NCBI GenBank assembly: GCA_000165345.1
Contig: CM000430.1
Location: 768,001-832,000, forward strand
Reading direction: 5' to 3'
Length of the DNA stretch: 64,000 nt
A program made the translations under genes and the position numbers. The notes below the pieces were generated by a model. That model saw only the letters and a list, made by a program, of their open reading frames with translations, searched no databases and had not been told where the DNA came from. This document shows positions 57,896-58,350 of the stretch, one piece after another; the stretch's first letter is position 1, and every line of letters starts with the position of its first letter.

Positions 57896-58350
57896 TTACC
57901 AAAAATGAAGCATTCCAAGACTAAGTACATTACCAATTAGTCCAAGAGATGCAAGAGCTAGAAATATATCATAATTTGTTAAATACTAAGATATTATTGG
58001 TGAATATTAATGAATCATAATCATTTTATATTTAACATTGACCAAACTTACATATAGTATTATAGAAACAAAAAATAATAATGTACTATAACTCAATATA
58101 TCCACATATTTTACATATACAGGCTTATTTTTACTCGCGATTGGACAATATTTATCCAATATTGCTTCATCATCAGACCCACAACTATCTGAATCAGTAA
58201 CATCTGAAAAAAATGCATATAAATTTATTAATTAAATAAATAATATATCTTGTTCTATTCTCACTATATAATTCCTTTCTCATTTTAATTTATATTATAT
58301 TACTTACCTGAAACTTCTATTTCTGTGTATCTTATCCTTCTTTTAATCAT
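57896..58350 (-). CDS. Small (94 aa) membrane protein with two predicted C-terminal transmembrane helices, encoded by 3 exons. Absent from the ORF track
   Basis: Exons in plus coordinates on the minus strand:
- 58350..58308, ATG ATT AAA AGA AGG ATA AGA TAC ACA GAA ATA GAA GTT TCA G, in phase 1.
- 58203..58052.
- 57985..57896, ending in TAA.

Intron 1 spans 58204..58307. It is GTAAGT...TTTTTTTCAG, 104 nt. Intron 2 spans 57986..58051. It is GTAAGT...ATATCTTAG, 66 nt. Phases are consistent, and total CDS is 285 nt, or 95 codons.

Product: MIKRRIRYTEIEVSDVTDSDSCGSDDEAILDKYCPIASKNKPVYVKYVDILSYSTLLFFVSIILYYLTNYDIFLALASLGLIGNVLSLGMLHFW. The ATG is the first in-frame codon after a TAA. The upstream region carries TGCATGCATGCA at 58441-58452 and TTGCATGCGTTTTGGCGGGAAATCG at 58670-58694. 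Confidence 0.6.

Follow-up and report, generated by a model that had tools for sequence, protein, structure and literature searches.

We conclude that the spacer between a SNF2 ATPase gene and a giant gene on chromosome 2 of Cryptosporidium parvum contains a genuine protein-coding gene of three exons, a reading to which we assign a probability of about 90%. The gene, which carries '2g3695' locus tags, follows the SNF2 ATPase gene in tandem and is convergent with the giant gene. It had been predicted from the letters of a 64-kb stretch of DNA, referred to here as the window. Both the gene and its exact model are already known.

A three-exon gene and its conservation

In an ORF scan of the window, the ORF of the giant gene ends at 57800 on the plus strand, and a SNF2-family ORF of 1552 aa ends at 58889 on the minus strand. 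The 1088-nt spacer between these points contains no plain ORF of more than 50 aa in the ORF list; the promoter-type motifs present there (discussed below) are therefore left without a plain ORF to account for them, as the original prediction had argued. Nor is the spacer explained by a known ncRNA, because an Rfam search of 57700-59000 (E up to 1) gave no match. The spacer had also been described as having the look of a convergent 3′-3′ arrangement, and this is correct for one of its two sides. The small gene and the giant gene do converge, with 95 nt separating their stop codons, but the small gene stands in tandem with the SNF2 gene, both on the minus strand and 538 nt apart, so that the arrangement is not a simple 3′-3′ one.

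The small gene occupies 57896-58350 of the minus strand, an extent of 455 nt that includes three exons and a CDS of 285 nt. Exon 1 (58308-58350, 43 nt) begins with an ATG at 58350-58348 in A-rich surroundings (gccaaaATGa), and codes for MIKRRIRYTEIEVS plus the first base of D15. It is followed by intron 1 (58204-58307, 104 nt, 15% GC), a phase 1 intron of the form GTAAGT...TTTTTTTCAG with a CAG end, the retention of which leads to an immediate stop. Exon 2 (58052-58203, 152 nt) encodes an acidic Ser/Asp cluster, the motif KYCPI(A/V)SK..P.YV.Y, and most of predicted transmembrane (TM) helix 1 (residues about 50-65). Intron 2 (57986-58051, 66 nt, 21% GC) is a phase 0 intron of the form GTAAGT...TCTTAG, and separates Y65 from Y66 at the end of TM1. 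Exon 3 (57896-57985, 90 nt including the TAA stop at 57898-57896) supplies the loop LTNYD and TM helix 2, and ends in GMLHFW. The splice junctions of the model are 58308/58203 and 58052/57985. When the three exons are joined, their conceptual translation is MIKRRIRYTEIEVSDVTDSDSCGSDDEAILDKYCPIASKNKPVYVKYVDILSYSTLLFFVSIILYYLTNYDIFLALASLGLIGNVLSLGMLHFW, a product of 94 aa followed by the stop codon and having no internal stop. The coordinates, sequences and compatible phases of the three-exon minus-strand model were all reproduced base for base. The tryptic peptides predicted from the 94-aa protein are YTEIEVSDVTDSDSCGSDDEAILDK and NKPVYVK.

The length of the spliced ORF was compared with chance expectation by taking 300 dinucleotide-preserving shuffles of the 1088-nt spacer and recording the longest ATG-to-stop ORF on both strands, with up to two GTA[AT]GT...YAG introns allowed per ORF. 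The shuffles had a mean of 45 codons, and three of the 300 reached at least 94 codons. ORF length alone is thus unusual and suggestive but not decisive. An alternative ORF of 102 codons, which uses another acceptor for intron 2, was rejected because its frame is not the conserved one. We take it to be cross-species conservation, and not ORF length, that settles the reality of the gene.

Six sequences were compared, namely those of C. parvum, C. felis, C. canis, C. ubiquitum, a Cryptosporidium from Logan run SRR31860986, and C. andersoni, a gastric species that is distant within the genus. The gene order, in which the SNF2 gene is followed by the small gene on the same strand and then by the converging giant gene, is kept in all five of the orthologous loci fetched. 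One check proposed with the prediction was to look for the ORF at the syntenic position in further Cryptosporidium species, and the spliced ORF is indeed kept in the six species. An alignment of the spacers consists of three blocks with changes at wobble positions, separated by DNA that is unalignable. Exon 1 varies between 40 and 52 nt, whereas the other two have a fixed length in every species, 152 nt for exon 2 and 90 nt for exon 3. Intron 1 is found at the same position in all six (length 48-217 nt), and intron 2 is likewise present in all six (48-162 nt), with GTAAGT at its start in each case and a YAG acceptor. Across all introns of the six species, the donor is GTAAGT or GTATGT and the acceptor is YAG, and intron phases and positions are kept genus-wide.

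Substitutions are biased toward the third codon position in every exon. Between C. parvum and C. felis, there are 11/4/51 differences at codon positions 1/2/3, and the sums over 15 species pairs are 149/100/366 for exon 2 and 112/52/243 for exon 3. The latter values, together with the length of 90 nt everywhere, indicate that exon 3 is translated in the proposed frame. For species pairs with unsaturated dS, dN/dS is 0.02-0.06. Identity amounts to 76-86% in the CDS versus 16-46% of alignment columns in the introns, and the unspliced sequence has many stop codons. The comparisons show that the spliced frame is under strong purifying selection.

It could be supposed instead that there is no coding gene, and that a spliced ORF arose by chance in an AT-rich spacer whose motifs drive a non-coding or antisense transcript. 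The three shuffles that attained 94 codons are in keeping with such a scenario, as is the frequency of antisense lncRNAs in C. parvum, which are described as common (PMC7840661). However, the dN/dS values, the invariant lengths of exons 2 and 3, the conserved splice sites, and a protein identity of 56% to C. andersoni are incompatible with non-coding sequence. The comparative data refute this scenario, and we consider it exceedingly improbable.

Annotated models of the locus

Over a stretch of 11,755 nt around the small gene, the window matches an annotated C. parvum record (CP029781.1, assembly GCA_031892065.1) with 100% identity. Exact matches to the 94-aa protein have been deposited for C. 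parvum as KAL5370165.1 (CPHLJ_2g3695) and WKS76668.1 (CPCDC_2g3695), and the annotated gene extent of 455 nt corresponds to 57896-58350. In C. hominis, CHM_2g3695 is a protein of 94 aa that differs by one residue. The original prediction had presented the gene as hidden and as belonging to a kind that is systematically missed. This part of it cannot be upheld, since two C. parvum assemblies already include an annotation of the exact protein and the exact extent. The claim to novelty is wrong because the exact model was already in GenBank, and because gene and model are public, the discovery value is small.

Full-length orthologues of 93-94 aa are annotated in C. hominis, C. meleagridis, C. felis, C. 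canis (OJ253_1941) and C. andersoni (cand_003270), with E-values of 1e-43 to 1e-53 and with identities of 87-99%, except for C. andersoni at the value given above. The entries for C. meleagridis and C. felis are titled 'putative integral membrane protein'. The model is 94 aa long in the HLJ and CDC strains of C. parvum, C. hominis CHM, C. meleagridis, C. felis and C. andersoni, and 93 aa long in C. canis. The small gene shares its sequence, synteny, three-exon structure and extent with the cgd2_3695-type orthologue group; there is no difference between the two, and the small gene is that gene. In the orthologue table of the 2015 reannotation, cgd2_3690 and cgd2_3700 are listed and 3695 is absent. 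This absence, and the numbering of the 3695 tag between 3690 and 3700, suggest that the gene entered the catalogue later than the original annotation. The tags cgd2_3695, CPATCC_000541, cpbgf_2003695 and 2g3695 were not mentioned in the literature searched.

Alongside the 93/94-aa models, GenBank holds five shorter models for this one locus, of 89, 87, 82, 79 and 71 aa. Intron 2 is read through in the 79-aa model of C. parvum IOWA-ATCC (CPATCC_000541), the 82-aa model of the chipmunk genotype (ELE39_001875), the 87-aa model in a second C. meleagridis annotation, and the 71-aa model of C. ubiquitum (cubi_00699). In C. parvum the read-through tail is VSLVNVKYKMIMIH, and DIFLALASLGLIGNVLSLGMLHFW would be expected of the spliced 94-aa product only. 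The 89-aa model, found in two C. hominis assemblies, lacks the residues DVTDS. Its sequence is consistent with acceptor use at 58190-58189, an in-frame AG on the minus strand that is 15 nt inside exon 2 and would give a product without DVTDS. This AG occurs in the C. parvum sequence and is missing from all five of the other sequences compared, and the DVTDS residues are conserved. The 58190-58189 acceptor would at best be a minor, lineage-specific alternative.

The read-through models raise the question of whether the main product is a 79-aa, single-TM protein of the CPATCC_000541 type, made from a transcript that retains intron 2 and has exon 3 as 3′ UTR. Several GenBank models take this form (79, 82, 87 and 71 aa), and the CPATCC annotation is evidence-based (PMC8744675). 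According to its authors, all annotated CPATCC introns are supported by RNA-seq (PMC8744675). Because the 79-aa model needs intron 1, that statement amounts to indirect transcript support, for intron 1 only; by the same token, the omission of intron 2 from an evidence-based model implies that RNA-seq support for intron 2 may be weak or variable. RNA-derived contigs carrying the protein were not found, and exact scans of JGI metagenome contigs with the two spliced-junction strings gave 0 matches. Retention of intron 2 as the main state is nevertheless opposed by the read-through tails, which are wholly unlike one another in length and sequence between species, by exon 3, which stays at 90 nt with its frame intact and its codon-position bias extending out to C. 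andersoni, and by the GTAAGT donor and YAG acceptor of the intron, which are conserved in six of six species. We judge it very unlikely that the 79-aa protein is the main product, although a minor intron-retention isoform is possible.

Conservation identifies the three-exon model of 94 aa as correct, and the models of 71-89 aa are probably wrong. The entries in need of correction are CPATCC_000541, cubi_00699 of C. ubiquitum, ELE39_001875 of the chipmunk genotype, the 87-aa C. meleagridis model, and the 89-aa C. hominis models. The name 'Armadillo-like helical containing protein', which is used in one annotation lineage that includes CPATCC_000541, should also be dropped; it is unjustified because it is applied to a protein of 79-87 aa that has no Pfam match. 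On the side of method, the case indicates that promoter motifs and splice signals read from sequence alone can recover real small spliced genes.

A candidate promoter upstream of the small gene

The spacer motifs that had drawn attention to the locus are present as stated, with TGCATGCATGCA at 58441-58452 and TTTTGGCGGGAAATCG at 58679-58694. In the former, which precedes the ATG by 91-102 nt, two palindromic TGCATGCA sites overlap. The core of the latter is an E2F-type site, TTTCCCGC, on the minus strand at 58684-58691, which is 334-341 nt upstream of the ATG. A ATGTGGAC box (58657-58664, minus strand) is located 27 nt downstream of the E2F site, and between the two is a GCATGC (58672-58677) that forms part of the same composite module. 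The TGCATGCA/GCATGC element is presumably an ApiAP2-type motif, in line with studies cited in PMC11761812.

The sequence TTTSSCGC occurs in 11 copies in the 64-kb window compared to 0.5 expected (>20-fold), and when mapped against long ORFs, most of the copies are intergenic and 5′ of genes. In C. parvum, open chromatin has been reported to have E2F as its dominant motif (PMC11761812). A pure 3′-3′ spacer would be an odd location for the copy at 58684-58691, which fits a promoter for the small gene and is a probable element of it.

The composite module recurs across the genus. In each of the six species, the DNA upstream of the orthologue has an E2F-like site, with ATGTGGA[CT] 19-32 nt further on, and GCATGC lies between the two in four of the six. 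Across the window, the ATGTGGA[CT] octamer is not enriched (3 copies compared to 3.3 expected). In C. parvum, C. canis and C. ubiquitum, there is in addition a GCATGC or TGCATGCA element at -77 to -101. The module of C. andersoni is at -58 to -39 in a spacer of 887 nt, and such proximity to the ATG fits a gene-proximal promoter.

We propose that the small gene would have its own promoter within the 538-nt SNF2-proximal spacer, made up of the E2F site, GCATGC and ATGTGGAC at -341 to -307, and of TGCATGCATGCA at about -100. Initiation from such a promoter is most likely, and more likely than co-transcription with SNF2. An implication of the distance of the E2F module from the C. parvum ATG, which exceeds 300 nt, is that there is either a long 5′ UTR with a short uORF, or some other function of the module. 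We also considered, and rejected, a coding exon further upstream that begins at the conserved ATGTGGAC; its frame closes before any donor, after 7-9 codons in all but one of the six species and after about 21 codons in the remaining one.

The alternative scenario is that the small gene has no promoter of its own and is the downstream cistron of a polycistron with SNF2, in which case the E2F module would be an element of an internal UTR. Both genes are on the minus strand with 538 nt between them, and polycistronic transcripts whose internal UTRs are enriched in E2F motifs have been reported for C. parvum (PMC11761812). This scenario bears on expression only and is compatible with the gene model. 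Against it, the composite module is kept upstream of the gene despite varied spacing, as in C. andersoni, and we regard the polycistron as quite unlikely.

If the small gene is transcribed from its own promoter, there is a parallel in the E2F-driven Cryptosporidium promoters (Oberstaller et al. 2013, as cited in PMC11761812, which also provides ATAC-seq data), which likewise have a TTTCCCGC/GGCGGGAAA site upstream of the ATG. The difference is that the E2F site here is coupled, at 19-32 nt, to the ATGTGGA[CT] box, a coupling conserved in six of six species, and that we could match this box to no described motif.

Protein features and possible function

The N-terminus of the protein had been characterized as acidic and Ser/Asp-rich. 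The description holds for residues 10-31, which are acidic, but not for residues 3-7 (KRRIR) and 32-46, which are basic. The tail is in three parts, a basic N-terminus, the acidic Ser/Asp cluster, and a basic juxtamembrane stretch, and the net charge of residues 1-48 is -1. The two hydrophobic helices placed at the C-terminus are found again by two further methods of prediction. In both C. parvum and C. andersoni, Kyte-Doolittle hydropathy rises above 1.6 in the windows covering residues 48-70 and 71-91, and in an AlphaFold2 model built from a five-sequence alignment, of low confidence (mean pLDDT 54.6), residues 1-42 are disordered and helices are formed by residues 43-67 and 70-93. The protein is predicted to be a helical hairpin that follows a disordered tail and to stop at the membrane edge. 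The lysines before TM1 and a loop of only ~4 residues favor a topology with both termini in the cytosol and the loop toward the lumen or the exterior.

Invariant residues were defined among seven sequences, including that of C. andersoni. In the tail, they are Y8, I11, E12, S14, D15, S19, D20, S24, D25, A28 and I29, followed by the block K32-Y-C-P-I36 and by S38, K39, P42, Y44, V45, Y47 and D49. Those of helix 1 (L51, S54, L57, F58, S61 and L64) fall on one helical face, and those of helix 2 are G80, L81, G83, N84, V85, L88, G89, L91, F93 and W94.

Several tail features resemble short linear motifs, a class with high false-positive rates, and the assignments of topology, sorting signals and phosphorylation sites are pattern matches only. 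As leads, we take YxxI to resemble a tyrosine sorting signal, S/T-x-x-D/E to resemble CK2 sites, and D-x-x-x-I-[L/I] to resemble an acidic dileucine signal. An Atg8-interacting (LIR) reading of Y8xxI11 is disfavored because basic residues (KRRIR) precede the tyrosine.

Tentatively, we suggest that the protein is anchored by its hairpin and would serve as an adaptor or regulatory subunit, with partners recruited by a conserved and probably phosphorylated cytosolic tail. It would be a small component of the endomembrane system, and the invariant tail features, that is, Y8xxI11, the CK2-type acidic Ser cluster (S14, S19 and S24), D25xxxI29[L/I]30 and KYCPI.SK, would together form a phospho-regulated docking surface for cytosolic partners. 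The face of TM1 formed by L51, S54, F58, S61 and L64, and the TM2 pattern G80xxG83N84xxxxG89, might pack against each other or onto a partner membrane protein.

Searches for relatives outside the genus were uniformly negative. Pfam hmmscan of seven orthologues (E up to 10) yielded no consistent family, in agreement with the failure of the original prediction to place the protein. A match to AgrB (PF04647; 15.5 bits, E 0.011) was obtained for one of the seven, below the gathering cut-off of 23 bits, and is a chance hydrophobic match; a DUF433 match of 12.4 bits, obtained with Pfam at E up to 10, was rejected as chance. An exhaustive HMMER search of 1.84 billion representatives with a five-species profile returned four matches, all from Cryptosporidium, and a word-indexed search (E up to 10), with a single sequence and then with a seven-sequence profile, returned Cryptosporidium proteins only. 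The lone match of a PDB sequence search, a glycine-receptor TM fragment with E 0.85, was rejected as chance-level. At the reach of the searches used, the protein is restricted to the genus.

A further scenario is that the protein is an invention of the genus Cryptosporidium, and that its conserved tail, by means of YxxI, the CK2-type acidic serine cluster and DxxxI[L/I], would recruit adaptor or coat proteins and so direct or regulate membrane traffic to a compartment peculiar to the parasite, such as the feeder-organelle or host-interface membranes or the secretory organelles. We consider this rather improbable; if true, the protein would be a small, genus-specific and possibly essential trafficking factor. 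Apart from any particular function, it is a tightly constrained, genus-restricted micro-membrane protein, of a class that is easily lost in proteomics and screens, and if it is essential, localization and knockout work would be merited.

Finally, the protein invites comparison with the small hairpin subunits of ER and endomembrane machines, and it had been suggested originally to be a small ER or secretory-complex subunit. It could in principle be a highly diverged orthologue of a universal subunit of this type, the candidates being signal peptidase SPC12/SPCS1, DPM2, PIG-P or PIG-Y, OST4 or OST5, and Vma21. The size class is the same (about 70-100 aa), as is the hairpin of two helices with a short loop, and subunits of this sort evolve rapidly and frequently lack annotation in reduced parasites. 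On the other hand, none of the candidate families appeared in the Pfam hmmscan, both profile searches remained within Cryptosporidium, the PDB search gave its one chance-level match, and a conserved N-tail of 49 residues without a C-terminal tail is unlike the architecture of those families. Orthology of this kind is in our view unlikely, and the hairpin-anchored adaptor or regulatory subunit described above is the functional reading that we prefer, though with low confidence. Its likeness to SPC12/SPCS1, DPM2, PIG-P or PIG-Y and Vma21 is one of size, a predicted hairpin, a very short loop, and termini that share one side of the membrane; it differs from them in having no sequence relationship in Pfam, PDB or large protein searches, a long acidic/basic N-tail, no C-terminal extension, and a genus-only distribution. 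By analogy with these hairpin subunits of ER machines, the product of the small gene may have the role of a small accessory membrane subunit.

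Upstream sequences of the small gene

Upstream of the three-exon, minus-strand small gene is a conserved composite element, located at 58657-58691 on the minus strand in the C. parvum window and present in all six species compared (C. parvum and the orthologous loci L003-L007, which are from C. felis, C. canis, C. ubiquitum, the Cryptosporidium of Logan run SRR31860986 and C. andersoni, respectively). In each of these upstream regions an E2F-like site is followed, after a gap of 19-32 nt that often includes GCATGC, by the sequence ATGTGGA[CT]. Comparison of ATGTGGAY with described motifs found no match. 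The ATG of this box begins a short reading frame whose first residues are MW; five of the species have a frame of 7-9 codons, and the Logan species has one of about 21. If transcription starts upstream of the box, the frame would be a conserved uORF. Nearer the gene is a GC-rich island, CCAGCACCGCCATCACTGTTACACCTCCCCCC (58482-58513, minus strand), for which there was neither conservation in the other species compared nor an Rfam match. The AT-rich sequence surrounding it is a putative 5′ UTR or promoter of the small gene.

Variation in splicing and gene models

There is an alternative, in-frame 3′ splice acceptor 15 nt inside exon 2 (AG at 58189-58190, minus strand), and its use explains the 89-aa annotations OLQ15915.1 and PPA65288.1 of C. 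hominis. The AG is found in the C. parvum sequence and is missing from all five other sequences compared. Other database models read through intron 2, and among these QOY42859.1 (CPATCC_000541) and an 87-aa C. meleagridis entry are named "Armadillo-like helical containing protein". Such a fold is not possible for a protein of 79-87 aa that lacks any Pfam hit, and the name therefore looks like an artefact of automatic annotation.

The introns of C. felis (L003 3001-3664), at 217 and 162 nt, are far longer than the 48-104 nt of the other species, and yet the exon lengths are the same. In C. andersoni, about 2.5 kb (L007 4421-6958) separates the small gene from the giant-gene stop, compared with 95 nt in C. 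parvum. The sole ORF in this gap is 66 aa. The gap could represent expansion of the spacer, a spliced gene missed by annotation, or additional 3′ exons.

The giant ORFs and a polymorphic locus

Two giant ORFs were identified by ORF scan, one of 6579 aa (1013-20752, minus strand) and one of 3964 aa (45906-57800, plus strand) that includes a long EEKEEK low-complexity run. The scan began the latter at a TTG; GenBank models are 3942-3948 aa, and the true start is therefore downstream. Tag numbering suggests that this giant gene is cgd2_3690, which has been called a WD-repeat protein (PMC4407392), although a Pfam search of the 3964-aa ORF at E up to 0.01 gave no hit. A 2015 comparative study reported that a locus "intergenic downstream of cgd2_3690", chr2_var2, is among the loci that are highly polymorphic between C. 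hominis isolates, with 5 SNPs per kb (PMC4407392, Table 5). If cgd2_3690 is indeed the giant gene, this "intergenic" region (57801-58888) contains the small gene.
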